Assembly (NCBI GenBank): GCA_947629905.1
Contig: CANRFM010000008.1
Location: forward strand, 5,811 to 69,810
Reading direction: 5' to 3'
DNA length: 64,000 nt
From: an uncultured Clostridia bacterium
GTDB lineage: Bacteria > Bacillota > Clostridia > Oscillospirales > Ruminococcaceae
Below the pieces are notes generated by a model, which was not told the DNA's origin, ran no database searches, and worked only from the letters and a program-made list of their open reading frames with translations. Below are positions 29,987 to 57,463 of the stretch, piece by piece (positions within the stretch are counted from its first letter, which is position 1; each line of letters starts with the position of its first letter). A program made the position numbers and the translations under genes.

Positions 29987-30301
29987 ATGGAACAAAAAAC
30001 GAAACTGGTTCTGGACGGGCTGGAGAAGCTTGCTTTCGGGCGTGTCAACGATGCAGTGCGGCTTGCCTTTGCGGATGAGATGCCGTCGCAGGCGGTGCTG
30101 TCCCGGATGAATCTGTTTAACGTTTCCTCGATCAAGCGGGTCAAGGGCGGCGGTGTGGAAATTCAGTTCTTCGACAGGCAGAAGGCACTGGAAAAGCTGT
30201 ACGACTTTGCCCATGCGGGGGAAAACGGCGCTGCGGCGGAAAGTCTCCTCGAAGCGCTGACGGGGGAGGATGCGGATGCGGTTCAGCAGGTTCTCCCCTA
30301 A
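29987..30301 (+). CDS. Phage terminase small subunit-like
   Basis: AAGGGGG lies upstream of the ATG at 29987. The protein is ~105 aa, and its end motif VEIQFFDRQKALEKLYDF resembles the conserved C-terminal block of small terminases. It is positioned upstream of terL. Confidence 0.55.
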   Translation: MEQKTKLVLDGLEKLAFGRVNDAVRLAFADEMPSQAVLSRMNLFNVSSIKRVKGGGVEIQFFDRQKALEKLYDFAHAGENGAAAESLLEALTGEDADAVQQVLP

Positions 30302-31526
30302 ACAAAAGCTCTGCCTGAAATGGTGGGCGATGCCGGAACTGCGGCAGTATGATGCGCTGATCTGTGACGGGGCAGTCCGCAGCGGCAAGACGCTTGCGAT
30401 GTCGCTGGGGTTTCTGTTCTGGGCGCAGGCTTGTGCGGACGGAGGGACGTTTGCGCTATGCGGTAAGACCATAACTTCCCTGCGGCGGAATGTCGTCCGT
30501 CCGCTTCAGGCGGTGCTGGAGGACTGCGGCTTTGATGTGCGGGAGAGGGTGAGCAAGAATTACCTCGATGTGACGGCGTTCGGGCACTGCAACCGGTTTT
30601 ACCTGTTCGGGGGGAAGGATGAAAGCTCGGCGGCGCTCATTCAGGGGATGACGCTGGGGGGCGTGTTCTTTGATGAAGTCGCTCTGATGCCACGTTCCTT
30701 TGTGGAACAGGCGATCGCACGGTGTTCGGTACGGCAGGCGAAGCTCTGGTTCAACTGCAATCCGGAGCACCCCTATCACTGGTTCTACCGGGAATGGATC
30801 TGCAAAGCGAAAGAAAAGCGTGCCCTGCACCTGCACTTCACCATGGAGGACAATCCCTCTCTGCTGGAGAGTGTAAAAGCACGCTACCGGAGAATGTACG
30901 GGGGGATGTTCTATGACCGCTTTGTCCTCGGCAAATGGACTGCACCGACAGGGCTGGTCTATCCGATGTTCGATGCAAGGCGGCACGTGACAAATGAGCT
31001 GCCGGAACGGTGTGACAGGTATGTGATCTCCTGCGACTACGGAACGATCAATCCTACTTCCATGGGACTGTGGGGCGAATCGGGCGGAGTCTGGTACAGG
31101 CTGCGGGAATACTACTATGCCGCAAGGAAAGAGGGCATTTCCCGTACCGATGAGCAGCACTATGCGGGGCTGGTACAACTCGCAGGGGAATTTCCGGTGG
31201 AGTGCGTCATTGTGGATCCGTCGGCGGCAAGCTTCATTGCGTGCATTGCGGCGCACAGGCAGTTCCGGGTCATTCCGGCTGACAATGCTGTGCTGACGGG
31301 GATCCGGCAGGTGAGTGAAGCCCTGCAGCAGGACAGGCTGCGGTTCTCGGCGGGGTGCAGCGACATCCTGCGGGAGTTCGGGCAGTATTGCTGGAAAGAG
31401 GACAGCGCCGGGGATGTTCCGAAAAAAGAAAACGACCATGCGATGGATGATATGCGCTATTTTGTCAGCACCATGCTGCATGGCACACAGAAAGAGGATT
31501 TTGTGGCGATCACAGTCGGGAGGTGA
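30270..31526 (+). CDS. Phage terminase large subunit (PBSX-type)
   Basis: Walker A is DGAVRSGKTLAMS and Walker B is GVFFDEVALM. The C-terminal nuclease block is DHAMDDMRYF. The gene overlaps terS by 32 nt. Confidence 0.85.
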   Translation: MRMRFSRFSPKQKLCLKWWAMPELRQYDALICDGAVRSGKTLAMSLGFLFWAQACADGGTFALCGKTITSLRRNVVRPLQAVLEDCGFDVRERVSKNYLDVTAFGHCNRFYLFGGKDESSAALIQGMTLGGVFFDEVALMPRSFVEQAIARCSVRQAKLWFNCNPEHPYHWFYREWICKAKEKRALHLHFTMEDNPSLLESVKARYRRMYGGMFYDRFVLGKWTAPTGLVYPMFDARRHVTNELPERCDRYVISCDYGTINPTSMGLWGESGGVWYRLREYYYAARKEGISRTDEQHYAGLVQLAGEFPVECVIVDPSAASFIACIAAHRQFRVIPADNAVLTGIRQVSEALQQDRLRFSAGCSDILREFGQYCWKEDSAGDVPKKENDHAMDDMRYFVSTMLHGTQKEDFVAITVGR

Positions 31527-31529
31527 CAT

Positions 31530-32678
31530 ATGCGATTCGGAAAGAAAAAAGAAAAGCTGCCGCTGCCGCAGGTGCAGACGGCAGCAAGAGAGCAGCTCTG
31601 TGAAACACCGGTACAGCTTTACAGCTATGCCTTGTTTGACAAGGTGCGGCGGACTGTGCCGATCGTGGATGCGGCGCTCTCGAAACTGGTGCGGCTGATC
31701 GGGTCATTTACCGTCAAATGCGGTGATGCTGCTCAACAGGCAGGGTTAGACCACTTTCTGCAGGAAGTACCGGTGGGGCTGACGGGGCAGTCGATCTACA
31801 GCTTTATTGACTGCTATTTAGACAGTCTTTTGGTCTGCGGCAATGCGGTCGGGGAAATTGTTCCCGGCAAGGGAAACCGCTGTATTGCCGGGCTGTGGAA
31901 CGGCAATGCTGCGGACATTATCGTCCGCCCCGGTGCTGCACCGCTCGAACGGCAGTACCTGCTGCGCACGCCGGACGGGGAACAGCTGCTCCCGCACCCG
32001 GAACGGATCCTGTTTTCTGCTTTGAAACCGCCGCCGGGCGGCATTTACGGGGTATCTGTCTTACAGGGGCTGCCGGTGTTTGCAGATATTCTGCTGCGCA
32101 TTTATGAATGCGTGGGGCAGAACTTCGACAGGGCTGGCAATATCCGCTATGCGGTGACGTATAAGCCGTCCGGTGATCCGACGGAGGCTGCCTATGCGGC
32201 TGACCGGGCGAAAACCATTGCACGGGAATGGTCGGAGGGGATGCAGGCTGCCCGGCGGGGGGAGATACGGGATTTTGTTTCAGTCGGGGATGTGGACATT
32301 AAGGTGATCGGCGCTGAGGGGTCGATGCCGGACACGGAAATACCTGTCCGGCAGCTCCTCGAACAGATGCTGTCAAAGCTCTCTGTACCGCCGTTTCTGC
32401 TCGGGCTGAGCTGGTCCTCGACGGAACGGATGTCGGCGCAGCAGGCGGATATTCTCACTTCGGAGCTGGAATATTACCGGAGACTGCTTGAGCCGGTCAT
32501 CTGCCGCATTGCACAGGCGTATTTGCAGCTTTCAGGCACTTACACGACAGTCGAAGTCGTGTGGGACAATATCAATTTACAGGATGAAGTGGAGCTTGCA
32601 AGGGCAAGACTCTACAACGCACAGGCAGCAGAGGCGGAACAGGCACTCTCTGCCGTACAGCAGAAGGAGGAATTGTAA
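31530..32678 (+). CDS. Phage portal protein
   Basis: The protein is 382 aa and lies immediately after terL. GGGAGG is the SD. The call rests on size and position, and the sequence feel is consistent with HK97-type portals. Confidence 0.65.
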   Translation: MRFGKKKEKLPLPQVQTAAREQLCETPVQLYSYALFDKVRRTVPIVDAALSKLVRLIGSFTVKCGDAAQQAGLDHFLQEVPVGLTGQSIYSFIDCYLDSLLVCGNAVGEIVPGKGNRCIAGLWNGNAADIIVRPGAAPLERQYLLRTPDGEQLLPHPERILFSALKPPPGGIYGVSVLQGLPVFADILLRIYECVGQNFDRAGNIRYAVTYKPSGDPTEAAYAADRAKTIAREWSEGMQAARRGEIRDFVSVGDVDIKVIGAEGSMPDTEIPVRQLLEQMLSKLSVPPFLLGLSWSSTERMSAQQADILTSELEYYRRLLEPVICRIAQAYLQLSGTYTTVEVVWDNINLQDEVELARARLYNAQAAEAEQALSAVQQKEEL

Positions 32679-33643
32679 TGTACAACGAAACAAAACTCGA
32701 AAAGGGACTGTATCACCTTGCGAACAAGAGCTTTTTGCAGGCGCTCGAAGAGGCAGACCCGGATGTGCAGTATGCGGGTACACCGCTCGGAAAGCTCGAT
32801 GCCTATGAACGGCAGCTCAAGCGGTTTGACATTCGTGTCAGCGGTCCGCTGTGTGACAGGGTGGAGAAATTCTTTACCACAACGGAAAGCGCCGTGCTGT
32901 TTCCGGAATTCGTGCGCAGGGCTGTGATGCAGGGCATGGAGGATTCTGTGCTCGGAGACATTACGGCTGTAGTCTCCCGCAGTGAGTCGAACCGCTATCA
33001 GGGTATTGATCTGACGGATACGGCTGCCTATACGACGACAAATGCCGGGGTGGAAATGCCGGCTTCTTCCATCGGGGAATGCACGGATGCGATCACCCTC
33101 ACGAAATATGGCAGACTTGTCAAGGCGACCTATGAGGCTGTCCGTCAGCAGAGACTGGATGTGTTCGCTCTCATGCTGCGCAGGGTCGGAAAGTGTTTGG
33201 CGGATGCGATGCTTTCTGCGGCTTTGAACGTCCTGAAAACCGGGGCAACTTCCGTAACGACTGCCGCTTCAACGCTGACTTATGGGGATGTTGCGGGGCT
33301 GTACGGGAGTTTCAAGAGCTTTTCTTTGCAGGCGGTGCTGGCTTCTCCGGCGGTCATTGCGCAGATCTTGGCTATGACGCAGATGGAGCATACGAGTGCA
33401 GCGGATGCCAAAGACCTGCGCCTGCCGTTCGGGGCAAGGCTGATCTGCTGTCCGCAGCTGGACGACAAGACGGTGCTTGGGCTGGATACGGATTTTGCGC
33501 TGGAGCAGATCCAGAGCAGTGATGTGGTTCTGGAGACGGACAAGCTCATTGACAGACAGCTTGACTGCATTGGCATTTCTGTGAATATCGGCTTCCGCAG
33601 ACTGATGAAGGATGCGGTGCAGGTCGTGACCATTCAGGCGTAA
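32678..33643 (+). CDS. Major capsid protein-like (HK97 fold type, no obvious delta domain)
   Basis: There is a TAATG overlap with the portal gene. The block ITLTKYGRLVKATYEAVRQQRLDVFALMLRRVGKCLADAMLSAAL resembles the conserved MCP core pattern. Confidence 0.55.
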   Translation: MYNETKLEKGLYHLANKSFLQALEEADPDVQYAGTPLGKLDAYERQLKRFDIRVSGPLCDRVEKFFTTTESAVLFPEFVRRAVMQGMEDSVLGDITAVVSRSESNRYQGIDLTDTAAYTTTNAGVEMPASSIGECTDAITLTKYGRLVKATYEAVRQQRLDVFALMLRRVGKCLADAMLSAALNVLKTGATSVTTAASTLTYGDVAGLYGSFKSFSLQAVLASPAVIAQILAMTQMEHTSAADAKDLRLPFGARLICCPQLDDKTVLGLDTDFALEQIQSSDVVLETDKLIDRQLDCIGISVNIGFRRLMKDAVQVVTIQA

Positions 33644-35658: not shown

Positions 35659-36575
35659 CACTGCGGCTGTATGCGGGGGACAGCTATACGGATGAGCACA
35701 CGTGTATCGGGCTTTCCCTCGAACGGGAAGCGTATACGCCATATACGCAGCTTTCGGCTTTGTTTCTTTCTACAGCGCCGGACGGGTATGGGGCAGTCAG
35801 CCGGATAGAACTGCTTTGGGGGGATGTGCTCCTGTGCTGCGGGACAACAGACCTTGTGGACTGTTATTGGAAAGACGGCGCACGTCTGGTGCGGGTGCGC
35901 TCCCGGAGTTTTACGGCGGCACTGCTGCAAAATGAATTTCCGCAGGGGATGTATACGAATATCACCTTTGCGCAGCTGATGACGGATTTCTGTCAGATGC
36001 CGCACGTCACCTACGAAAACGAAACACGCACCAATTATATTGCCGTCAAAGAGGGGACGACTGCATGGGACTGCGTGGTGGCATTCGGCTATAAGCTGAC
36101 AAATCACTACCCCTATATCGTGGACAACTGTGTGATGCTCAGTCCGCCGGCTGCGCCGGTGCTGCATACGGTCGATGCTGCACAGGTGACGGCTTACGGG
36201 GAGACGGCTGACTCGACAAGGATCATCAGCCATTATCACATGGAAGAAATAGACGGCACGCCGAATGCCTATGAATCGGTAAATGCTGCGGCGGCGGCTT
36301 CGGAGATCGTGCGGCACAAGCAGATCACCTTTGACAGGCAGTTTGCCTATTTCCCGATGCAGGCACTATCGTTCCGGAATGCCTATTCCTGCCGGCAGAG
36401 CAGGTCGAAATACCTTGTCTACAACGGCTTTGGCAATGAGCAGATCGGGGACAAGGTCAGCTTCGGGGCATTTATGGACAATATGACGATCAGCCGGGTA
36501 CTGCTCACGGTCGGGCAGCAAGGTGTCCGTACCAAGCTGTGGGCGTATCAGGATGAATTTTATAATACGAAATAG
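35649..36575 (+). CDS. Phage-module protein, unknown (308 aa)
   Basis: This is the last ORF of the module and overlaps the upstream ORF by 10 nt. No motif was recognised. Confidence 0.45.
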   Translation: MELTLRLYAGDSYTDEHTCIGLSLEREAYTPYTQLSALFLSTAPDGYGAVSRIELLWGDVLLCCGTTDLVDCYWKDGARLVRVRSRSFTAALLQNEFPQGMYTNITFAQLMTDFCQMPHVTYENETRTNYIAVKEGTTAWDCVVAFGYKLTNHYPYIVDNCVMLSPPAAPVLHTVDAAQVTAYGETADSTRIISHYHMEEIDGTPNAYESVNAAAAASEIVRHKQITFDRQFAYFPMQALSFRNAYSCRQSRSKYLVYNGFGNEQIGDKVSFGAFMDNMTISRVLLTVGQQGVRTKLWAYQDEFYNTK

Positions 36576-36626
36576 GGAGATCCGCTCCCTTTCCACTTTC
36601 TCCGGTTTTGCCGGTTTATATAGAGA

Positions 36627-36666
36627 GACCCCGGTGCTTTTTACGGCACCGGGGTCGTTGTTTTTT
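36627..36666 (+). terminator. Rho-independent terminator after the phage-like module
   Basis: An 11-bp perfect stem gaccccggtgc / gcaccggggtc is followed by gttgtttttt. Confidence 0.75.
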
Positions 36667-36674
36667 CTGGCAGG

Positions 36675-36989
36675 CTATTTCTCCTGCTTGGTTTCTGCTT
36701 CATCATAACAGGGAAAGTGGGGTACTTCTTCTCCCGTTGTATCGTAGAAATACTGTTTCAGCTCGTCAAGACGCTTGTCCAGTCTTTTGAAATCCCGTGG
36801 CTTCTCGCATTTGAGCGCATCGTGCCGCCAAATATGTTGGGCTTCTCTCATATTTTTCACAAACGGATGTTCCTCGTCATCCATATTCATGTTGTGATTG
36901 AACATATAGCGGAAGTATATTGCCGCTACATCATTGGCATAGTCCATAAGGCATTCCGTTTCAAGTGTCCGGTCAAACTTCTTTTGCAT
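36675..36989 (-). CDS. Hypothetical protein (104 aa)
   Basis: ATG at 36989 follows GGAGAA. The sequence MQKKFDRTLETECLMDYANDV... has no recognised family. It is the last gene of the minus-strand string. Confidence 0.5.
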   Translation of the reverse strand: MQKKFDRTLETECLMDYANDVAAIYFRYMFNHNMNMDDEEHPFVKNMREAQHIWRHDALKCEKPRDFKRLDKRLDELKQYFYDTTGEEVPHFPCYDEAETKQEK

Positions 36990-37017
36990 GACTGTTCTCC
37001 TTTCATGAAATGGCTGT

Positions 37018-38915: not shown

Positions 38916-39553
38916 GCCTCGTCCTCCTCGTCCGTTTCGTTCGCAAAATAATCTGCAATGGCAGCTTTTACGCTTCGATAATCATACCCAAGCCTTGCCA
39001 TACCGGCAATGACCTTTTCCCGTGTCCGGTAGTCTTTCGGGTCGGTCAGCACTTTGCCGTACTTCTTTTTCAGCACCTCCGGCAGGTTCTCCTCTGCCGT
39101 GTCGGCATACTGCTCTAAAATTTCTTCCGTCAGCGTTTTGTCAAGCCCCCGGTGCAGCATTTCCTGCTCTGCCCGGAACAGCCCGTAGTGCTTGCGCTCC
39201 ACCAGATATTCTGCCAATTTTTCCGCATAGCGGGCATCGTTCAGCAAGCCTTTCTGCACAAGGGCTGCTATCACATACTGGCAGAGGGGCTTGTCCTGAT
39301 AGGTCTGCATCAGTTTCCGGTACAGCATCAGGCTCGAATAGTCCCTGTCATCGAGCAGATACAGCGCCCGCTGCATTGCCCTGTGGCGGCGGGACTTCTC
39401 GTGCAGCTCCGACAGCAGGTCTTCTTCCGCTTCTCCGCCGGCGGTGATGCCGTTCTTTTCGAGCAGTCTCCCGTCAATTTCATAGACGGCGGTTTCCGTC
39501 ACCACTTCATAATAGCTCCGCTTCCGCCTTAGCTCCTGTATCTGCATCGTCAC
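38912..39553 (-). CDS. recX: RecX regulatory protein
   Basis: It lies directly downstream of recA with a 4-nt overlap. The helical-repeat pattern [22 protein letters not shown] is present. Confidence 0.75.
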
Positions 39554-40764
39554 TCGTCTGTCGGGTCAAATTCCTCGAAATCATCATCGGCACTGATGTC
39601 CTCGGCAATGTCCGGCACGTCCGCTTCGTCTGTCTTCGGGGGTTCTTCGCCGGTTTCAATCGCTTCCTGAACGGCTTCGGCATCCTCGTTTTCCTCATCG
39701 GAGGGGGACATATCGATCTGGTCGATGTGTTCCATGATCTTTGCCTCGATCTCCTTGCGGAATTCCTCGTCCTCGAGTAGGCGTTTCTTCACATTATCCC
39801 GTCCCTGTCCGAGTTTGTTGCCGTTATAGCTGAACCACGAGCCGCTCTTCTTGATGATGTCCAGCTCTACAGCAAGGTCGGCGATCTCCCCATTCCGGGA
39901 AATGCCCTTGCCGTAGATATTGTCAAATTCACACTCACGGAACGGCGGAGCGACTTTGTTCTTGACGACTTTCACTTTCATGCGGTTGCCGTAGGGGACA
40001 CCGCCCTCTTTGAGTACCTCGCCCTTGCGCACGTCCATGCGGATGGTGGCATAGAATTTCAGGGCACGGCCGCCGGGGGTCGTTTCGGGGTTGCCATACA
40101 TGACACCGATCTTTTCACGGATCTGGTTGATGAAAATGGCAACGCAGCCCGTCTTGGAAATGACAGCGGTCAGCTTGCGCATTGCCTGCGACATCAGGCG
40201 AGCAAGCTGTCCGACATGGCTGTCGCCCATTTCGCCGTCGATTTCGGCTTTGGTCGTCATGGCAGCAACGGAGTCCACGACCAGTACATCCACACCGCCC
40301 GAACGGACAAGCTGTTCGGAGATCTCCAGTGCCTGTTCGCCGCTGTCCGGCTGGGAGACGAGCAGTTCATTGATATTTACGCCCAAAGCCATGGCATATT
40401 TCGGGTCAAGGGCGTGTTCCACATCGATGAACGCTGCCGTGCCGCCCATTTTCTGGGCTTCGGCTACGATGTGGAGTGCAACGGTCGTCTTACCGGAGCT
40501 TTCCGGTCCGTACAGTTCGACGATACGTCCTCTCGGCACACCGCCGACACCTAATGCAAGATCCAGTGTCAGCGATCCGGTCGGGATGACTTCGACATCG
40601 ATTTTCTTCTTGTCCCCAAGGCGCATGACAGCACCCTCGCCAAAGGCTTTGGTGATCATTTTCATAGCACGGTCAAGGGCTGCCTGTTTCTCCTCTTTCG
40701 TGGTCGGTGCCTGATACATCGCAGGCTTTTTTTCCTTGGTTTTGGTCGTTTTGGCTTTTGCCAT
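39550..40764 (-). CDS. recA: Recombinase RecA (N-terminal basic extension, long acidic C-tail)
   Basis: ATG at 40764 follows AGGAGG. Motifs are [26 protein letters not shown] and VVVDSVAAM. The track ORF from 40824 lacks an SD. Confidence 0.95.
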
Positions 40765-41599
40765 CGTTAATTCCTCCTTCATATGTGCCGCAAGTACCCA
40801 ATACAATGCGGTCATTGCCGGCAAGATCCGGCAGTATTTCTATCTGCTGAAAACCCTGCTCCCTGAACAGATCCGCTACCGCTTTTCCCTGTGTTTCGCC
40901 TATCTCAAAGGCAAGCATCCCGCCGGGGCGGAGCTTCTGTTTCCAGAGCGGCAGCATCTTCCGGTAAAAAAGCAGCCCGTCCGTACCGCCACGCAGGGCA
41001 GTTTCCGGCTCACGGCGTACTTCCCTTTGCAGGGTGCACATTTCGGCATCGGTAATATAGGGCGGATTGCTGACGATCACGTCCGCTTCCGGGAGTGTTC
41101 TGCACAATGCAGCATCCAGTACATCCCCCTTGTGCAGCTTTACGGGCAAACCGTGCAGGGCACAATTGCGCCGGGCGTAGGACAATGCCGTTTCATACAG
41201 ATCCACGGCGTGTACTTCTGCCGCCGGGAACAGCTTTTGCAGTGCAAGCGCAATGCAGCCGCTGCCCGTACACAAATCAAGGATACAGTGCGGCGGCTTG
41301 CCGGCAAAGCGTTCCTGCACGGCATCGATCAGCGTTTCCGTATCCGGACGGGGGATCAGCACCCCCTCGCCCACGAACAGGCGCATACCGTAAAATTCCC
41401 ACTCCCCCAACAGATATTGCAGCGGTTCGCCTTCTATGCGGCGCTGTGAAAGCCTGTGAATTTCCGCTGCCTGTGCCGGGGTAGGCTGTGTGAAACCGTT
41501 TCCGGTGATGTGTCCGGTTAGGCACTGCGCTTCAAAGCGGGCATCGGGGATGCCGTTTGCCGCAAGCTGTGCGGTCAGTTCCGACAGGAAACTCACCAC
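40673..41599 (-). CDS. prmC: Release-factor glutamine methyltransferase with ~45-aa C-terminal read-on into recA
   Basis: Motifs are [13 protein letters not shown] and IVSNPPYI. The stop lies at 40673, 92 nt inside recA. Confidence 0.8.
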
Positions 41600-52154: not shown

Positions 52155-54128
52155 ATGCCAGATAGACACATACATATTGCTGTCATTGTATCAACGATCG
52201 ACGAGGAATACCAGAGCGGCATCCTCAGAGGCATTCGGCAGTTTGCCTTTGCCAACAATATCACCCTCGATCACTTTGTCGCTTTCGGCAATATCGGGAG
52301 CGACATCCGGCACGATACGGGGGAGTATAATATTTTCTCCCTTGCCGATTTTTCCCGGTTTGACGGCGTGATACTCGTCATCAATACCATTCAGTTTGCC
52401 GATTGTCTGGAGCGTGTACTCGAACGGGTGCGGGCTTCCGGCATTCCGGCAGTCTGCATTGACAAGAATGTTGCCGGGTTCTATTATATTGGTATCGACA
52501 ACGAAATGGCAATGCACGCTATGGTGGAGCATTTCATCGTCAAGCACGGCTTTGAGCGCATCAATTTCATTTCCGGACCGGCGGATAATATTGACAGCGT
52601 ACAGCGCCTGAAAGCCTACAAGGAAGTACTGACGCAGCACGGCATTCTCGTGGAGGAGGAGCGCATCTATCACGGGCGGTTCGTTTCACGGGACGGTGTG
52701 GATGCCGTGCAGAAATTCATGAACTCTGACCTCGAAATGCCGCAGGCAATCGTCTGCGCCAATGACACGATGGCAATTGCTGCCGTCAGTGCTTTGATGC
52801 ACCATGGGGTGCGTGTGCCGGAGGATGTGGCAGTTTCCGGGTTTGACTACATCTACAATGCCCGGAACTATGCGCCCTCGCTGACATCCGTGGAACGTCC
52901 GCTCGAACGGGTCGGACAGCTTGCGTGTCAGAAGATTTTGAATCACCTTGACGGCAAACCGCAGGAGCGGGAATCTATGCTTGACATTTTCTGCCGGTTC
53001 TCTCAGAGCTGTGGCTGCTGTGAAGCACCCATCATGGATGCGGATGAATTCAAGCGGCGGAACTTCACGGTACTGGAATCGTTCTCGGATGATGTTTCAC
53101 TGGCAAGCCGTCTCTCGTCCTCTTTGGCGGAGTGCGATAATTTAGAGGAATTTGTGGAGAATCTGCGGTATTTCATTCCGGATTTTCACTGCAAGGAGTT
53201 CTACCTCTGCCTGTGCGACAGTTGGCGGCACGGCGTGACGGACGAGCAGGAAGAACGCTATCCTGTCCCGGTGCTTTCGGCGAATGATTACATCGTAAAC
53301 GGCTACGGGGAGCGCATTGTTGTGCCGCTTGCCTACCGGAACGGGCGGTTTTACGATATGCCGGACTTTGCGGCAGAGGAGATGCTGCCGGGAATGTTTG
53401 ACGAAAAAAGCGAAACGGGGAATTATTACTTCGTCCCGCTGCATTTCCGGGAACGGTGCATGGGGTACTGTGTCATCAAGGACAGCAATTTCCCTACCAG
53501 CAGCAAGCTGTTTCACAACATTGTCATGGACATTGCCAATTCCCTCGAAAGTGTGCGCAAAATTGTGCGGCTGGACAAGGTGACCCAGAACCTCAACCGG
53601 CTGTACACGATAGACCCGCTTGCCGGCATCAACAACCGGAACGGCTTCCGCATCGACACCAGTCAGCTCTACAGCTACTGCATGGAAGCACAGAAGCCGG
53701 TGATGCTGATGTTCCTCGACATGGACGGGCTGAAACGTATCAACGACACGTTCGGTCACAAGGCGGGCGATGCTGCCATTATGGGCATGGCGGAAGCCAT
53801 CAAGCGTGCCTGCACGGGCGGTGAGGTCTGCTGCCGGTTCGGCGGGGATGAGTTCATCATCTTTGCGGCGGACTACACGGAAGAACAGGCGCAGTCGCTC
53901 TCCGAGCGCATCCTCGAATGTCTGGAGAGCCTGAATGCCGAAAGGCAGCTGCCCTACAAACTGGCTGCCTCGTTAGGGTTTCATATCACTGTACCCGAAC
54001 CGGGAACGAATCTGTTCCAGCTTGTGACGGTCGCTGACAACATCATGTATGCTGCCAAAAAGAAGAAGAAGACCTCCCGCTACCTGAAACACGGGAAGAA
54101 CGGGGAAACGGATACGGATACGGAATGA
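52155..54128 (+). CDS. Diguanylate cyclase with N-terminal LacI-type (periplasmic-binding-protein fold) ligand domain, no HTH
   Basis: The N-terminus reads IAVIVSTIDEEYQSGILRGI...CANDTMAIAAVSAL...VSGFD (sugar-binding fold). The C-terminus reads NRNGF...DMDGLKRINDTFGHKAGD...FGGDEFIIF. Confidence 0.8.
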   Translation: MPDRHIHIAVIVSTIDEEYQSGILRGIRQFAFANNITLDHFVAFGNIGSDIRHDTGEYNIFSLADFSRFDGVILVINTIQFADCLERVLERVRASGIPAVCIDKNVAGFYYIGIDNEMAMHAMVEHFIVKHGFERINFISGPADNIDSVQRLKAYKEVLTQHGILVEEERIYHGRFVSRDGVDAVQKFMNSDLEMPQAIVCANDTMAIAAVSALMHHGVRVPEDVAVSGFDYIYNARNYAPSLTSVERPLERVGQLACQKILNHLDGKPQERESMLDIFCRFSQSCGCCEAPIMDADEFKRRNFTVLESFSDDVSLASRLSSSLAECDNLEEFVENLRYFIPDFHCKEFYLCLCDSWRHGVTDEQEERYPVPVLSANDYIVNGYGERIVVPLAYRNGRFYDMPDFAAEEMLPGMFDEKSETGNYYFVPLHFRERCMGYCVIKDSNFPTSSKLFHNIVMDIANSLESVRKIVRLDKVTQNLNRLYTIDPLAGINNRNGFRIDTSQLYSYCMEAQKPVMLMFLDMDGLKRINDTFGHKAGDAAIMGMAEAIKRACTGGEVCCRFGGDEFIIFAADYTEEQAQSLSERILECLESLNAERQLPYKLAASLGFHITVPEPGTNLFQLVTVADNIMYAAKKKKKTSRYLKHGKNGETDTDTE

Positions 54129-54140
54129 ATCAAGCAAAGG

Positions 54141-54222
54141 TCGGCGCAGAGCCTGCGCTCCCGTTTTGCCTCCCAATGCGCCTGACGGCGCAAAGGTCGG
54201 CTTGCATGACTGATAGTGCAGT
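54141..54222. repeat. Structured ~82-nt repeat, copy 1
   Basis: Hairpin A gcgcag-agc-ctgcgc (54144-54158), then gcctcccaatgc, hairpin B gcgcc-tgac-ggcgc (54178-54191), then aaaggtcggcttg...tagtgcagt. Confidence 0.75.
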
Positions 54223-54237
54223 ATCAAAATAGTGACA

Positions 54238-54268
54238 GGACGCCCTGAATCGGGGCGTCCTTTATTTC
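54238..54268 (+). terminator. Rho-independent terminator candidate downstream of the cyclase gene
   Basis: ggacgccc-tgaatcg-gggcgtcc is followed by tttatttcc. Confidence 0.6.
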
Positions 54269-54290
54269 CGTCGCATTTCACGACGGAAAT
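54264..54290. other. 10-bp perfect hairpin whose 5' arm is the preceding terminator's T-tract
   Basis: The sequence is atttccgtcg-catttca-cgacggaaat. Confidence 0.6.
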
Positions 54291-54361
54291 GCAATTCAGG
54301 TAGATGAGGTCGGTAAAATCGACCCCACAGGGGCGCAGGGGTATGAACCAGATTCACACCC

Positions 54362-54444
54362 TTCCGGCAGGCTGCCGGCTCCGTGGTGCCTCCCAATGCC
54401 GCCTGACGGCGGCAAAGGTCGGCTTGTTCGGTTGGTAGTGCAGT
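54362..54444. repeat. Structured ~82-nt repeat, copy 2
   Basis: Hairpin A ccggcag-g-ctgccgg (54364-54378), then gcctcccaatgc, hairpin B gccgcc-tgac-ggcggc (54398-54413), then aaaggtcggcttg...tagtgcagt. Confidence 0.75.
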
Positions 54445-54462
54445 TTAGGGGGCATACACTGT

Positions 54463-54790
54463 GGCGTATGGTATACGCCATTGCTATACGCCCGTTTTGG
54501 CTATTTATAGCCAATCATACGCCCATACGCCTAAAAAGCAAGTTGTCCTTATATTGATACCACACGTGCAGTGCACAGCCTTTGCACGCCACCTGCACAC
54601 GCCTGTTTTGGCTATGTATAGGGCTTTGCACGTCTGCACGCCTTTTTTCTTTGTTGCTATTATATATATATTATACTACCGTACCATGTACACCCTGCTG
54701 TACACCCTGATGAACGTCTGTTTTTTGCTGTATATAGCCATTGGTACGCCGGTACGCCTTTTGGGCTTGTTGTCCTTATATATACTGTAC
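54463..54790. repeat. Three tandem ~100-115-bp units with a common scaffold but unit-specific 8-mer words
   Basis: Each unit has 2 upstream words, gtttt + GGCTAT-N-TATAGCC-like palindrome, 2 abutting words, a T-run, then (c)ttgttg(t/c)c(c)ttatata. The abutting words are catacgcc x2 (54516-54531), tgcacgtc/tgcacgcc (54627-54642) and ggtacgcc x2 (54743-54758). Confidence 0.75.
54562..54790. repeat. Left arm of long inverted repeat (units 2-3)
   Basis: The reverse complement of 55111-55366 aligns here. By hand alignment, identity is roughly nine positions in ten over 54595-54790 and weaker over 54562-54594. Confidence 0.8.
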
Positions 54791-55057
54791 TATATTTTTT
54801 CAACCATACTGTTTCTATTAAAATCAAATAAAATATATCTGTATTTCTATGATAACATGAAACTTATCCATAGAATGGACATATTTTTATCCAGTTACAA
54901 TAGAAAAAAGTATAAAACTGCCAAAATGACAGTTTTGCAATACCCGAAAGGGTGTAACTCTAATGGACACCCTTTGACGGAATACAAAGCTCCACAACAA
55001 AATAATATCGAGTTTTAACAAAACGTTAAAAGTCATATTAAAAAAATATATCAGTCG

Positions 55058-55080
55058 GTATACCCTGAATCGGGGTATAC
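55058..55080. other. Hairpin with the same loop as the 54238 terminator but a swapped stem
   Basis: gtataccc-tgaatcg-gggtatac versus ggacgccc-tgaatcg-gggcgtcc. Confidence 0.6.
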
Positions 55081-55110
55081 TTAGGCTAATGTCATGAAAT
55101 GCGGCGGCAG

Positions 55111-55366
55111 GTATAGTATATATAAGGACAACAAGCCCGAAAGGCGTACCGGCGTACCAATGGCTATAATACGTACTTTCTGCCCGTTCAACAAGGTGTA
55201 CAGCAGGGTGTACATGGTACGGTAGTATAATATATATATATATATATATATATAATAGCAACAAAGAAAAAAGGCGTGCAGGCGTGCGAATGGCTATACA
55301 CAGCCAAAACAGGCGTGTGCCGATGCCGTGCGCAGGTAAAAATGACGTGCATCTGCACGTGTAACA
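55111..55366. repeat. Right arm of long inverted repeat (inverted units 3'-2')
   Basis: See the left arm. This arm is longer because of the (TA)12 run. Confidence 0.8.
55231..55254. repeat. (TA)12 microsatellite
   Basis: tatata... runs from 55231 to 55254. The homologous site in the left arm (54661-54670) is (TA)5. Confidence 0.9.
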
Positions 55367-55398
55367 CACACTGCATTGCTGCTTTTTTCAAAAAACAC

Positions 55399-55427
55399 TT
55401 GACAAACGCTCCGAAATGTGATATACT
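55399..55427 (+). promoter_or_regulatory. Sigma-A promoter candidate for cysK
   Basis: TTGACA (55399-55404), a 17-nt spacer, then TATACT (55422-55427) with an extended TGa. Confidence 0.65.
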
Positions 55428-55480
55428 ATAAGCATACCAAACATATAGGTAAACAAGTCGTTTACGGAAAGGAGTTTCAC

Positions 55481-56407
55481 ATGAAAGTTTTTCATTCTTT
55501 TACGGAACTGGTAGGAGGTACGCCGCTGCTGGAGCTGACGCACCTCGAAAAGGCAAACGGTCTGGAGGCGACTGTCCTCGGCAAGCTTGAATACTTCAAC
55601 CCCGCCGGGTCGGTCAAGGACAGAGTAGCCGTTGCCATGATCGAGGATGCAGAGGCAAGGGGCGTGCTCAAAAAGGGCAGCGTCATCATCGAACCGACCA
55701 GCGGTAACACCGGGATCGGGCTTGCGGCTGTGGCTGCGGCTCGGGGCTATCGGCTGATCATCACCATGCCGGAAACGATGAGCATCGAGCGCCGCAACCT
55801 GATGAGAGCCTACGGGGCAGAACTCGTGCTGACAGAGGGCGCAAAGGGCATGAAAGGCGCAATCGCCAAGGCGGAGGAGCTTGCCAAGGAGATCCCGGAC
55901 AGCTTCATCCCGTCCCAGTTCTCCAACCCTGCCAACCCTGCCATCCACCAGAAAACGACCGGCGTGGAGATCTGGAACGATACGGACGGCAAGGTCGCTA
56001 TTCTCGTTGCCGGGGTCGGCACGGGCGGCACGATCAGCGGCGCAGGGGCTTACCTGAAATTCCAGAACCCTGATATTAAAATTGTTGCCGTTGAACCGGC
56101 AAGCTCTCCTGTACTCTCCAAGGGGACTTCCGGACCGCATAAAATTCAGGGCATCGGTGCGGGTTTCGTGCCGGACACGCTGAATACGGACATTTATGAC
56201 GAAATCATCCCGGTCGTGAATGAGGATGCCTTTGCTGCCGGGCGTGCCGTTGCCAGAAGTGAGGGCGTACTGGTCGGCATTTCCTCCGGTGCGGCTGTAT
56301 GGGCTGCCATAGAGCTTGCCAAACGCCCCGAAAACAAGGGAAAAATCATCGTCGCTGTCCTGCCGGACACGGGTGAACGCTATCTTTCCACACCGATGTT
56401 CGACTGA
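55481..56407 (+). CDS. cysK: Cysteine synthase A (O-acetylserine sulfhydrylase)
   Basis: GGAG lies upstream of the ATG at 55481. Motifs are [24 protein letters not shown] and [10 protein letters not shown]. Confidence 0.9.
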
Positions 56408-56415
56408 AAACACAA

Positions 56416-56448
56416 ACCGGGATGCCTTTCGGTATCCCGGTCTGTTTA
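56416..56448. terminator. Bidirectional terminator between cysK and feoA
   Basis: accgggatgcc-tttc-ggtatcccggt has T-rich flanks on both strands. Confidence 0.65.
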
Positions 56449-56450
56449 TC

Positions 56451-56684
56451 TCAATGCTGCTCCCGCTGTATGACAATACCCCGTGCATCGGCATTGCGTA
56501 AAGCGACCACAGCGCCCCGTATCCGGTAGGCGGCAAGGTCTGTACCTTTCTGGATACAAGTCACTGCCGTACCCGGGATCAGTCCGATGTCCTGCAAGCG
56601 GCTCCGGATCACGCCTTTCAGGCGGAAACCCAGTATACGCCCGGTCGCCCCCTCCGGGAGCATATCCAATGAAAATCGTTCCAT
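56451..56684 (-). CDS. feoA: FeoA-domain protein (orphan)
   Basis: ATG at 56684 lies 6 nt after GGGAGG. The protein is 77 aa and SH3-like, with pattern ...GATGRILGF...RLQDIGLIPGTAVTCIQKG..AAYRIRGAVVALR. Confidence 0.65.
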   Translation of the reverse strand: MERFSLDMLPEGATGRILGFRLKGVIRSRLQDIGLIPGTAVTCIQKGTDLAAYRIRGAVVALRNADARGIVIQREQH

Positions 56685-56788
56685 GTGCATCCTCCCTGCT
56701 GCTATTCTATGCAGCGGGGGGATGTTCGGTGTCAGGACTTCATTTCGGCATTGACACTATGGACTGGGAAAGGCAGGTCTTTCCGCAG

Positions 56789-57463
56789 TCAGCCGCCCCT
56801 TTCACAGCGTAATTTTGCAGCAAGCTCCGGCAACGAATCGCCTGTCCACGCTGCAAGGCGGCAGATCTCTGCCCATTCTGCCGGAGGACAGCTCTTGTCC
56901 CGCACCCCAGCAACCGGAAATCCGCCCTTTACTGCCGTCTGTACGCAGTGCAGGGCATCCTCTACGATCAAAGTCTCTGCCGGTGCTGTGCCGAGCAGGG
57001 CGGCGGCTGCCTGATACATGGCAGGGGTAGTCTTGCCGCCCGGTACATCCTCCGCTGTGAGGAGGAATTGCAGCCGTTCGAGGATGCCGAGCCGCTTCAG
57101 GGCAGCCTCTGCGGAACTCCGGTACGTCGCCGTAGCTATGCCGTAGGGAATGCCGTGCCTGTCCAAAAAGTCCAAAAACGCTGCCGCACCCGGTTTCAGG
57201 GGGATGCGTGTCCGGTAATATTCCGCTGCCATTTCCTCGATGCGCCGTATCACGTCACCCGGTGTGCAGCCGATGCCAAATTCCCGGACGAAGTACTCTG
57301 CCCACTCTTCCATGCTCATCTTGTTCACCTGCTCCGAAAGCCCCTCCGGCAGGGTGAGGTGATGTTCCTCGAAAAAGCGGATGTCAATTTCATGCCAGAT
57401 CGGCATAGAATCGAGCAGAGTACCGTCCATGTCCAGAATGACACCCCGGATACCGTGCAGCAT
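56789..57463 (-). CDS. HAD-superfamily hydrolase (beta-phosphoglucomutase-like subfamily)
   Basis: Motif I is VILDMDGTLLDS. The cap region and IVEDA motif IV are present. Confidence 0.75.
   Translation of the reverse strand: MLHGIRGVILDMDGTLLDSMPIWHEIDIRFFEEHHLTLPEGLSEQVNKMSMEEWAEYFVREFGIGCTPGDVIRRIEEMAAEYYRTRIPLKPGAAAFLDFLDRHGIPYGIATATYRSSAEAALKRLGILERLQFLLTAEDVPGGKTTPAMYQAAAALLGTAPAETLIVEDALHCVQTAVKGGFPVAGVRDKSCPPAEWAEICRLAAWTGDSLPELAAKLRCERGG

Follow-up and report, generated by a model that had tools for sequence, protein, structure and literature searches.

A non-coding inverted-repeat cassette in the cyclase–cysK spacer varies among strains of an uncultured Oscillospiraceae lineage

The spacer between the cyclase gene and cysK

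The window analyzed here is a 64,000-nucleotide stretch of DNA from an uncultured Oscillospiraceae bacterium (GenBank assembly GCA_947629905.1, contig CANRFM010000008.1, positions 5,811 to 69,810), in which the spacer between a gene for a GGDEF diguanylate cyclase and cysK harbors a long imperfect inverted repeat around an AT-rich core. The locus is ordinary chromosomal DNA, with genes arranged in the order RNase R, SecG, zinc-ribbon protein, cyclase, a 1352-bp spacer, cysK, HAD hydrolase, TmcAL and acetate kinase. Extra DNA within the spacer, hereafter the cassette, spans ~54130–55381 and includes a repeat block at ~54455–55377, positioned between the terminator of the cyclase gene and an intact cysK promoter. 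The cassette has no coding capacity and no homologues elsewhere; it is present in some strains and absent from a close relative, differs between strains in the number of its repeat units, and stands in the opposite orientation in one contig. It is a rare, fast-evolving intergenic element — neither a classical transposon nor a gene switch, and not a demonstrated MITE (miniature inverted-repeat transposable element) or inverton. Its principal features and immediate neighbors are as follows, with L015 and L016 denoting two contigs that carry variant forms of the cassette.

52155–54128, plus strand: gene for a diguanylate cyclase with a periplasmic-binding domain and a GGDEF domain (Pfam GGDEF 4e-35, Peripla_BP_3 3.5e-27)
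54455–54561, plus strand: unit U1, word ATACGCC; outside the inverted repeat as first described, with no right-side partner in this strain
54562–54675, plus strand: unit U2, outer unit of the left arm, word TGCACGCC
54676–54790, plus strand: unit U3, inner unit of the left arm, words GTACACC and GGTACGCC
54791–55110, no strand: AT-rich core, 100% identical in L015 (as reverse complement) and ~72% identical overall in L016
55111–55225, minus strand: unit U3', inner unit of the right arm
55226–55366, minus strand: unit U2', outer unit of the right arm, containing (TA)15 at 55226–55254
55399–55427, plus strand: cysK promoter, TTGACA-17-TG-n-TATACT, 11/12 match, outside the cassette
55481–56407, plus strand: cysK (O-acetylserine sulfhydrylase, PALP fold; Pfam PALP 1.8e-78), 95–100% in relatives

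The inverted repeat had been proposed in a sequence-only reading of the window, made without database searches, and our measurements bear out most of that description. Three collinear inverted blocks recovered by repeat search join 54579–54790 to 55111–55336:

54579–54671 with 55244–55336: inverted block 1, 93 nt, 88%
54661–54716 with 55185–55240: inverted block 2, 56 nt, 96%
54733–54790 with 55111–55168: inverted block 3, 58 nt, 97%

Global alignment of 54595–54790 with the reverse complement of 55111–55320, which had been matched by hand at roughly nine positions in ten, yielded 177 matches, 17 mismatches and 18 gap columns, corresponding to 91.2% identity ungapped (177/194) or 83.5% over all columns; the alignment score of 252 lies far beyond that of 300 shuffles (−123 ± 15, maximum −70). 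The differences cluster as described, in a 14-nt difference in the length of the TA run and in a diverged patch of ~15 nt (54716–54732/55169–55184) beside the unit palindrome. The weaker outer similarity reaches 54562 on one side and 55362–55366 on the other (79.8% over 253 columns, 89.9% ungapped), such that the full arms, 54562–54790 and 55111–55366, are 90–91% identical ungapped. The enclosed core, guessed at about 30% GC, measures 31.2% over 320 bp, against 51.5% for the window, and the right arm ends 33 nt ahead of the cysK promoter, close to the ~35 bp estimated. The limits of the element, given as 54562–55366, had to be redrawn: relative to the empty allele of a close relative, the extra DNA occupies ~54130–55381 and includes the third unit U1 as well as duplicated hairpin modules.

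Open reading frames (ORFs) drawn through the repeat had been noted to lack a Shine-Dalgarno sequence and to run through repeats, and the two long ones (54461–55018 on the plus strand and 54887–55369 on the minus strand) have low-complexity translations without a Pfam match. The minus-strand ORF found zero matches among 1.84 billion representative proteins, and the minus-strand core ORF meets a stop after 6 codons in L016. A small protein encoded in the core (MTVLQYPKGCNSNGHPLTEYK...) was considered and rejected: three of five substitutions relative to L016 are synonymous, which falls short of significance (p of about 0.14, an estimate), no ribosome-binding site (RBS) precedes it, and its C-terminus is not conserved.

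Arms built from a repeated unit

Both arms are arrays of a ~112-bp unit, in the order U1-U2-U3, core, U3'-U2', with the unit tails pointing toward the core in every unit. U3 and U3' are 96–97% identical outside one ~15-nt patch, and U1 is 75% identical to U3 over 60 nt; U1 is unmatched on the right, which leaves the structure asymmetric (three units on one side, two on the other). The units, at 41–47% GC, share a scaffold that comprises, in order, an inverted word, two direct words, CTGTTT, an 8-2-8 dyad (TTGGCTATnnATAGCCAA) conserved in each unit, two tandem words and a T-run. Its 3' end reads CTTTGTTG(CTA or TCC)TTATATA, followed by a TA tract of variable length. Among U2-type units this tract has 15 repeats in U2' and ~5 in U2 and is interrupted in L015 and L016, its length differing in every copy and strain in the manner of a microsatellite.

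Each unit carries a 7–8-nt word of its own, present 4–5 times in both orientations and the same at all positions within the unit: ATACGCC in U1, GCACGCC in U2 and GTACGCC/GTACACC in U3. The complement of the 5' inverted word agrees exactly with the 3' words over 7–9 nt within a class, compared with a mean of 4.1 nt between classes (n = 76). A relative possesses a fourth class, CGTGTAG/CTACACG, which constitutes a paired change, and two units break the rule. Such within-unit matching may arise from selection for a hairpin, from a binding protein, or from local homogenization by slippage or template switching. Tandem words are often exact 8-mer duplications, and exact 12-mer tandem duplications also occur within units; together with the variable (TA)n, these duplications point to ongoing slippage.

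Read toward the core, U2, U3 and U2' form long hairpins followed by U-runs. We found no RNA fold conserved across the units, whose folds differ and are not consistently more stable than shuffles (z-scores from +1.6 to −3.3). Hand inspection likewise led us to reject one promoter per unit, as no hexamer pair recurs with consistent spacing across units.

Alleles in related strains

The sequence-only reading had suggested comparing the cyclase–cysK spacer in relatives to see whether it is empty or filled, and both states occur: empty in L009/L010, and filled, in variant forms, in L015 and L016. In the close relative represented by L009/L010 (CysK 95% identical, coding DNA 90–92% identical), the spacer is 181 bp long, compared with 1352 bp in the window, and is made up of a canonical terminator hairpin, another hairpin and a cysK promoter that is the same as in the window. 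Homology of the window to this empty allele ends at 54119 and resumes at 55382, so the extra DNA amounts to ~1.25 kb and is wider than the repeat originally flagged. The junctions are ragged, with pieces of the short spacer scattered, duplicated and inverted within the window spacer. Because a close relative does without it, the cassette is dispensable.

L015 and L016 are short European Nucleotide Archive (ENA) contigs, among three recovered by protein search with the spurious 185-aa ORF that runs through U1–U3. L016 (1.9x coverage) has the same left flank followed by a symmetric arrangement, U1-U2*-core-U2*'-U1', which has a U1 at either end; the arms agree with each other at 84%, and the core has diverged to ~72% identity overall apart from one well-conserved stretch. 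In L015, positions 2–107 correspond to the left flank of the window (54270–54375) at 92.5% identity, followed by 45 nt of unique sequence and then by a block collinear with the window from 55350 to 54459 on the opposite strand, at 97% over 892 columns. Within this block, the 664 bp that make up U2, U3, the core and U3' match the window at 100%, a contrast with the flank that is significant by Fisher's test (p = 5e-5). The combination of the same flank with a reverse-strand block means that the relative orientation of block and flank is opposite in the two strains. An orientation polymorphism between strains is thus indicated by the sequence of one contig, which is 1 kb long, has 3x coverage and is anchored to neither the cyclase gene nor cysK, such that the part that flipped relative to the chromosome is not assignable.

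In a 96–97% relative, assemblies break on both sides of the spacer, with L001 stopping at the equivalent of 54197. L014 begins 192 nt ahead of cysK, and its positions 1–115 (97% relative) contain a degenerate unit tail (ACGCCTGAAAAGCATGTCTCTTATTTAAT) aimed at the cysK −35, with a palindrome (CCCTTCCCCCTTGGGGGAAGGG) before the tail; since this tail faces the −35, the cysK-side architecture differs again in the L014 strain. Synteny in 70–76% relatives is uninformative because their downstream genes differ. Three Logan contigs from three samples (L011, L012 and L013) share the same first base, 144 nt upstream of cysK and equivalent to position 4857 of L009, which falls just past the cyclase terminator of the empty allele. 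This common start suggests a branch in the assembly graph, with filled and empty alleles co-existing in those samples.

Hairpin modules outside the repeat block

Beyond the units, the window spacer contains duplicated hairpin modules, one of which recurs at the right end of the core, and a right-hand junction close to the cysK promoter.

54161–54222, plus strand: RA1, copy 1 of a 62–64-nt direct repeat (RA), CCGTkkTGCCTCCCAATGC-hairpin-GCAAAGGTCGGCTTG...TAGTGCAGT, built from pieces of the relative's short spacer
54237–54268, plus strand: T1, intrinsic-terminator-like hairpin, AGGACGCCC-TGAATC-GGGGCGTCCT then TTTATTT, 11 pairs of which 8 GC (terminator scan)
54268–54286, no strand: H, hairpin CCGTCG-CATTTCA-CGACGG, whose core is the L009 cyclase terminator GTCGTGAAATGCGAC, inverted (15/15 match on the L009 minus strand)
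54381–54444, plus strand: RA2, copy 2 of the RA direct repeat, directly left of the repeat block; not in L015 or L016
55058–55107, no strand: T1+H module, copy 2, at the core's right end, GTATACCC-TGAATC-GGGGTATAC then GTCATGAAATGCGGCGG; missing from the L016 core
55367–55384, no strand: right junction, with L015 homology extending to ~55377 (CACACTGCA) and the relatives' cysK-upstream homology resuming at 55382–55385

RA1 and RA2 are 84% identical, and two pieces of the 181-bp L009 spacer, GCAAAGGTCG and CCGTGGTGCCTCCCA, recur in both. The second copy of T1, at 55058–55080, shares the loop of the first and has a different lower stem; the inverted terminator core of H lies at 54270–54284, with another copy, an inverted copy of H, at 55091–55107. 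Across the recurring hairpins of the spacer, loops (TGAATC, TGAC and TGAAATG/CATTTCA) are kept while stems have changed yet remain complementary. This holds for the sets 54237–54261/55058–55080, 54179–54194/54399–54416/L009 4857–4871 and 54268–54286/55091–55107/L009 4829–4851, and one pair has an insertion on both sides of the stem (GCGCC/GGCGC versus GCCGCC/GGCGGC). They look like duplicated terminator hairpins that have been kept foldable.

The words TGCAGT and TGCAAT are found in the window at 54217–54222, 54291–54296, 54439–54444 and, inverted, at 55371–55376, as well as at 113–118 of L015 and 70–75 of L016. Junctions of allele rearrangement fall repeatedly at these words, as in a deletion of 54223–54289 in L016, at the boundaries of the window block and at the L015 junction.

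A candidate small RNA in the core

The stretches of the core best conserved between the window and L016, 54868–54990 and 55003–55043, coincide with features of a possible minus-strand small RNA (sRNA):

54904–54995, minus strand: candidate ~92-nt sRNA, with a hairpin at 54944–54980, a terminator hairpin at 54914–54936 and a U6 run from the A-run at 54904–54909
55002–55029, minus strand: promoter-like site for the candidate sRNA, TTAACG-16-TATTAT, 9/12 (promoter scan)

The predicted fold on the minus strand has −27.1 kcal/mol (z = −3.0), and the hairpin at 54944–54980 comprises 9–12 bp; the plus strand folds nearly as well (z = −2.8). L016 keeps the −35 of the promoter-like site and the surrounding bases, and its −10 becomes TACTGT. 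All five substitutions relative to L016 fall in loops or unpaired positions or change GC to GU on the minus strand, with no double compensatory change, conservation here being judged from two independent sequences. Promoter-like sites occur on both strands of the core, nine in number compared with 3.0 ± 1.6 expected for the region. On these sequence features, the core may encode a ~92-nt minus-strand sRNA, which would be the most likely payload of the cassette if it has any, a suggestion that is far from proof.

Distribution

The cassette is known only from a gut/rumen-type Oscillospiraceae lineage. No second copy of the unit family exists in the 64-kb window, and a search of 185,579 species genomes with the unit dyad scaffold pattern returned one chance match only (an Angelobacter metagenome-assembled genome, MAG). 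The unit scaffolds were absent from IMG/VR viral contigs, the strict unit tail from JGI metagenomes, and the core hairpin pattern from both JGI metagenomes and IMG/VR viral contigs; blastn of the whole spacer against phage and plasmid records yielded no match. In a 15-billion-protein collection, the cassette ORF occurs on four contigs only, the window's own included. The three placeable cassette contigs share one left flank, and every placeable occurrence is at the same locus.

Other copies, which the sequence-only reading had proposed to look for along with target-site duplications (TSDs), were found neither in the 64-kb window nor in the collections scanned. A scan for terminal inverted repeats (TIRs) with TSDs yielded only palindromic words inside the repeat ((TA)n, TGTACA and GTAC), with none at the outer ends. 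Rfam 15 covariance models run over 53000–57000 at E<1 gave only a spurious snoRNA match inside cysK, with no LhrC, riboswitch or T-box. Exact look-ups of the window cyclase, CysK and P0122 in the contig index returned no record. The literature searched provided general background on invertons and small repeats and nothing resembling this element.

Genomic context

Neither the repeat nor its surroundings had been thought to contain a transposase or recombinase gene, and this extends to the whole window, where no such domain appears in sizeable ORFs and integrase, invertase and transposase domains are absent from the ORFs of the 64 kb. recA lies at 39550–40824, with recA and recX together within 38.9–40.8 kb. 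Orthologues of the cyclase at 96% and ~70–76% occur in Oscillospiraceae MAGs. The 3' end of the cyclase ORF (54104–54124) is a tandem repeat of GGATAC, 3.5 copies, that encodes a TDTDTE tail; L009 differs at this end, so the cyclase C-terminus is variable. On the other side of the spacer, the cysK promoter is kept in empty-site strains, with 93–95% identity from 55382 onward in L009–L014.

Farther away, positions 1–29731 form a 30-kb block of genes on the plus strand alone, with a lower GC (0.43–0.51) and a strongly positive GC skew. It includes genes of the Tad/type IV pilus kind (T2SSE, T2SSF, prepilin peptidase), one for a DUF5702 protein of 1407 aa, and then a run of FHA, PP2C phosphatase and Ser/Thr kinase genes. 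The last of the run encodes a kinase of 1436 aa bearing eight PASTA, Big_2 and LRR_5 domains, and a large share of the ORFs in the block lack a Pfam match. GC rises from ~0.46 to 0.57 at ~30 kb, and three consecutive plus-strand genes at 30270–33643, for terminase large subunit, portal and capsid, are a small phage-like head module (a prophage remnant, or gene transfer agent-like or satellite-like), with no integrase detected in the window. At ~36000–37000, a positive GC skew turns slightly negative and gene orientation switches from all-plus to all-minus, the pattern expected at a replication terminus or island edge.

Discussion

We read the flagged repeat, with about even confidence, as the center of a non-coding foldback repeat cassette that is specific to this lineage and bound to its locus, changes by way of its own repeats and passes by exchange from strain to strain. 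The ~112-bp unit would have multiplied in tandem and then been mirror-copied to the other side of the AT-rich core, with slippage and tandem duplication giving rise to the units and the TA tract. Gene conversion between the arms would hold them 84–97% alike, and reciprocal homologous (RecA-type) recombination between inverted units would flip the intervening DNA. An allele with U1 on both sides, as in L016, would allow the stretch from U2 to U2' to be flipped, and the forms seen in the window and in L015 would follow once one U1 had been lost. Alleles would be swapped whole — empty, two-unit, three-unit or flipped — between strains by homologous recombination via the conserved flanking genes, which would explain a 100% identical interior beside a 92.5% identical flank. 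Such a course would make a transposase or dedicated invertase unnecessary, recA itself being present in the window, and units read inward might behave as hairpin-plus-U-run terminators.

Several observations weigh against this reading. The 664 bp at 100% identity next to a flank that differs by 7.5% also fits an element that is mobile or selfish, or a metagenome contig made chimeric through shared unit sequence. Recombination between the U2–U3 arms cannot relocate U1, so an ancestor with two U1 copies and differential loss, or other outer breakpoints, is needed. Word matching within units in both orientations suggests selection, for a hairpin or a binding protein, that neutral recombination is insufficient to provide; the unit folds, for their part, are not consistently more stable than shuffles. 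The TGCAGT/TGCAAT words at the junctions could represent microhomology or the core of a site-specific recombination site, and the latter would likewise speak against it.

Among the alternatives, a functional sRNA locus — a conserved core sRNA flanked by unit arrays that serve as terminator or insulator shields against read-through, with structural variation incidental — is unlikely, albeit with an appreciable chance. The best conservation of the core lies over the candidate, which on the minus strand combines a promoter-like site, two hairpins and a hairpin-plus-U6 terminator with five structure-neutral substitutions, and the inward-reading hairpins and U-runs of U2, U3 and U2' would suit shielding. 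Set against these features are the absence of an Rfam family at E<1, a comparison of two independent sequences that holds no compensatory double change, a plus-strand fold nearly as good, the commonness of promoter- and terminator-like sites in AT-rich DNA, a close relative in which the cassette is missing, and the inconsistency of the unit folds. A non-autonomous mobile element, either a foldback element or a large MITE mobilized in trans and inserted between the cyclase gene and cysK, we hold to be unlikely as well. This was one option of the sequence-only reading, and the part that stood is the structure: long arms of tandem sub-repeats, unequal in length and inverted around an AT-rich loop, without coding capacity, in a site filled in one strain and empty in a close one, with 664 bp of complete identity beside a 92.5% flank. 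TIRs are present, if far longer than those of typical MITEs. What such an element should also display did not appear, as no plausible outer boundary has a TSD, the window encodes no transposase, and no second copy occurs in the 64 kb or the collections scanned, all placeable occurrences being at one locus, while the boundaries against the empty allele are ragged and interleaved with pieces of the ancestral spacer. A bolder reading, to which we attach a distinctly low probability, makes the cassette a new kind of self-contained, recombinase-independent flip-flop sRNA module between mirror hairpin arrays, or else a foldback-type mobile element, the first in bacteria, that spreads site-specifically from strain to strain. 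In the flip-flop version, the RNA gene would be turned over reversibly, and the number of units altered, by recombination between its flanking arrays beside the cysK promoter, creating heritable switchable states; under either version, the matching of words within units would reflect a hairpin, or a hairpin-reading protein, needed by the mechanism.

An inverton whose orientation would govern transcription of a core promoter or sRNA with respect to cysK or the cyclase gene, and which would be flipped by a recombinase from another part of the genome, has a slim probability. The invertible segment foreseen from sequence alone gains from the opposite relative orientation of the L015 block, from the excess of promoter-like sites on both core strands (9 versus 3.0 ± 1.6 expected) and from junctions that coincide with inverted TGCAGT words, and distal recombinases are known for Clostridia, RecV of Clostridioides difficile being an example. 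However, it is the whole ~0.9-kb block including the arms and U1 that differs in orientation, not the 320-bp core alone; the repeats exceed 200 bp and are imperfect, compared with 10–40-bp exact repeats as a rule, and the only short near-exact repeat bounding the block is the 6-nt TGCAGT, shared in inverted orientation at the outer junctions. No recombinase is encoded within 64 kb, where a distal enzyme might still act; the orientation difference is between diverged strains and comes from one low-coverage contig; and unit number varies, unlike the outcome of a conservative invertase. With a strong cysK promoter situated beyond the block and retained in the empty allele, promoter control of this neighbor seems unlikely. 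The third option of the sequence-only reading, a replication-related site (a plasmid-type iteron origin or a fork-arrest site) or a cruciform regulatory structure, fared worst and is highly improbable. Repeated words flank an AT-rich region that contains the DnaA-box-like words TTATCCATA and TTATCCAGT, and a switch in GC skew and gene orientation lies ~19 kb away, near 36 kb; yet the DnaA-like words are not conserved in L016, the window has no rep gene, and a close relative has the empty allele. Words vary between units, which makes a single binding protein unlikely, and a 320-bp spacer disfavors cruciform extrusion. We give equally little probability to an assembly artefact, in which the window palindrome or the flipped L015 stems from mis-joining of reads at repeats. 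All data are metagenome assemblies, with 3x coverage for L015 and 1.9x for L016, and relatives' contigs break here; however, the 17 arm differences plus indels show that the window is not a perfect artefactual palindrome, the independent assembly L016 has the same layout of unit, core and inverted unit in diverged sequence, and the L015 junction holds ~45 nt of unique sequence absent from the window.

The locus-bound cassette that we favor can be set beside several known systems. Eukaryotic foldback elements such as Drosophila FB share its arms of tandem sub-repeats, variable arm length and unit number, short AT-rich non-coding loop and presence/absence polymorphism, but are dispersed, multi-copy and TSD-flanked, whereas the cassette is confined to a single locus, lacks TSDs and has ragged boundaries; we know of no FB family in bacteria. 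Bacterial MITEs and small repeats (Correia of Neisseria, RUP and BOX of pneumococcus, ERIC, and REP/BIME/REPIN) are likewise non-coding, intergenic and hairpin-prone, with modules of ~100 nt, a location between terminator and promoter and possible promoter- or terminator-like signals, and in BOX and BIME the number and orientation of modules also vary. These families number tens to hundreds of copies per genome and have defined termini (TA or other duplications, or RAYT-recognized hairpins); the cassette, by contrast, is a ~0.9-kb block at one locus, without TSD or sequence similarity in the collections. With invertons (fimS, hin, Bacteroides capsule promoters, C. difficile RecV) it has in common a gene-adjacent segment with inverted repeats at its ends, found apparently in both orientations and with internal promoter-like sites. 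Invertons nonetheless rely on ~10–40-bp exact repeats and a tyrosine or serine recombinase, while the cassette has repeats of >200 bp at 91%, no recombinase nearby, a variable unit number and a promoter that lies outside.

RecA-dependent flip-flop, as in inversions between rrn operons or insertion sequence (IS) copies and in plastid inverted-repeat isomers, resembles the cassette in its >200-bp similar arms, conversion-like homogeneity and freedom from a dedicated enzyme; those cases use functional genes or IS copies, in contrast to private non-coding units and an inverted segment below 1 kb. Oren et al. (PNAS 2014) reportedly described how strains exchange intergenic (regulatory) regions horizontally through homologous recombination. 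Here, too, close strains carry alternative, unrelated alleles of one intergenic region between orthologous flanking genes, although that switching concerns alternative promoter regions, whereas in our case the promoter is conserved and an added upstream repeat cassette varies. Tandem sRNA arrays (LhrC1-4 of Listeria, SIB/QUAD of E. coli) are similar in having ~110–140-nt intergenic tandem units. lhrC1-4 of Listeria adjoins cysK, an adjacency that is coincidental, and the cassette differs from such arrays in having no Rfam match, per-unit promoter or terminator, conserved fold, or RBS-preceded hydrophobic small ORF.

Several specific types of element were rejected. Ends of a multi-site transposon of the Tn7/Mu kind, which the left end of the block (TGTGGCG) might recall, have no matching right end, TSD or transposase. 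REP/BIME/REPIN elements are 20–40-nt GC-rich palindromes in many copies with a RAYT, in contrast to units of ~112 nt at a single locus and no IS200/IS605-like protein in the window. A type I toxin–antitoxin repeat (Ibs/Sib, Ldr, Fst) does not agree with the ORFs of the units and core, none of which has a Shine-Dalgarno sequence or is conserved. An oriC- or iteron-type origin is contradicted by non-identical words, unconserved DnaA-like words and the lack of a rep gene.

The cassette is new in sequence and unusual in design, and none of the mechanisms named fits it on all the tests above. Its significance is limited, in that it is dispensable and restricted to a single uncultured lineage, with no demonstrated effect on the genes beside it; its biological value may lie in the conserved core, perhaps an sRNA beside a cysteine-synthesis gene. 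Loci of this kind break short-read assemblies, and repeat-based scanners may mistake them for MITEs or invertons. If the favored reading is correct, an intergenic region has gained ~1.2 kb of private, non-coding, self-recombining DNA and then diversified without a transposase or an invertase, so that strains of one species have empty, two-unit, three-unit or flipped alleles.

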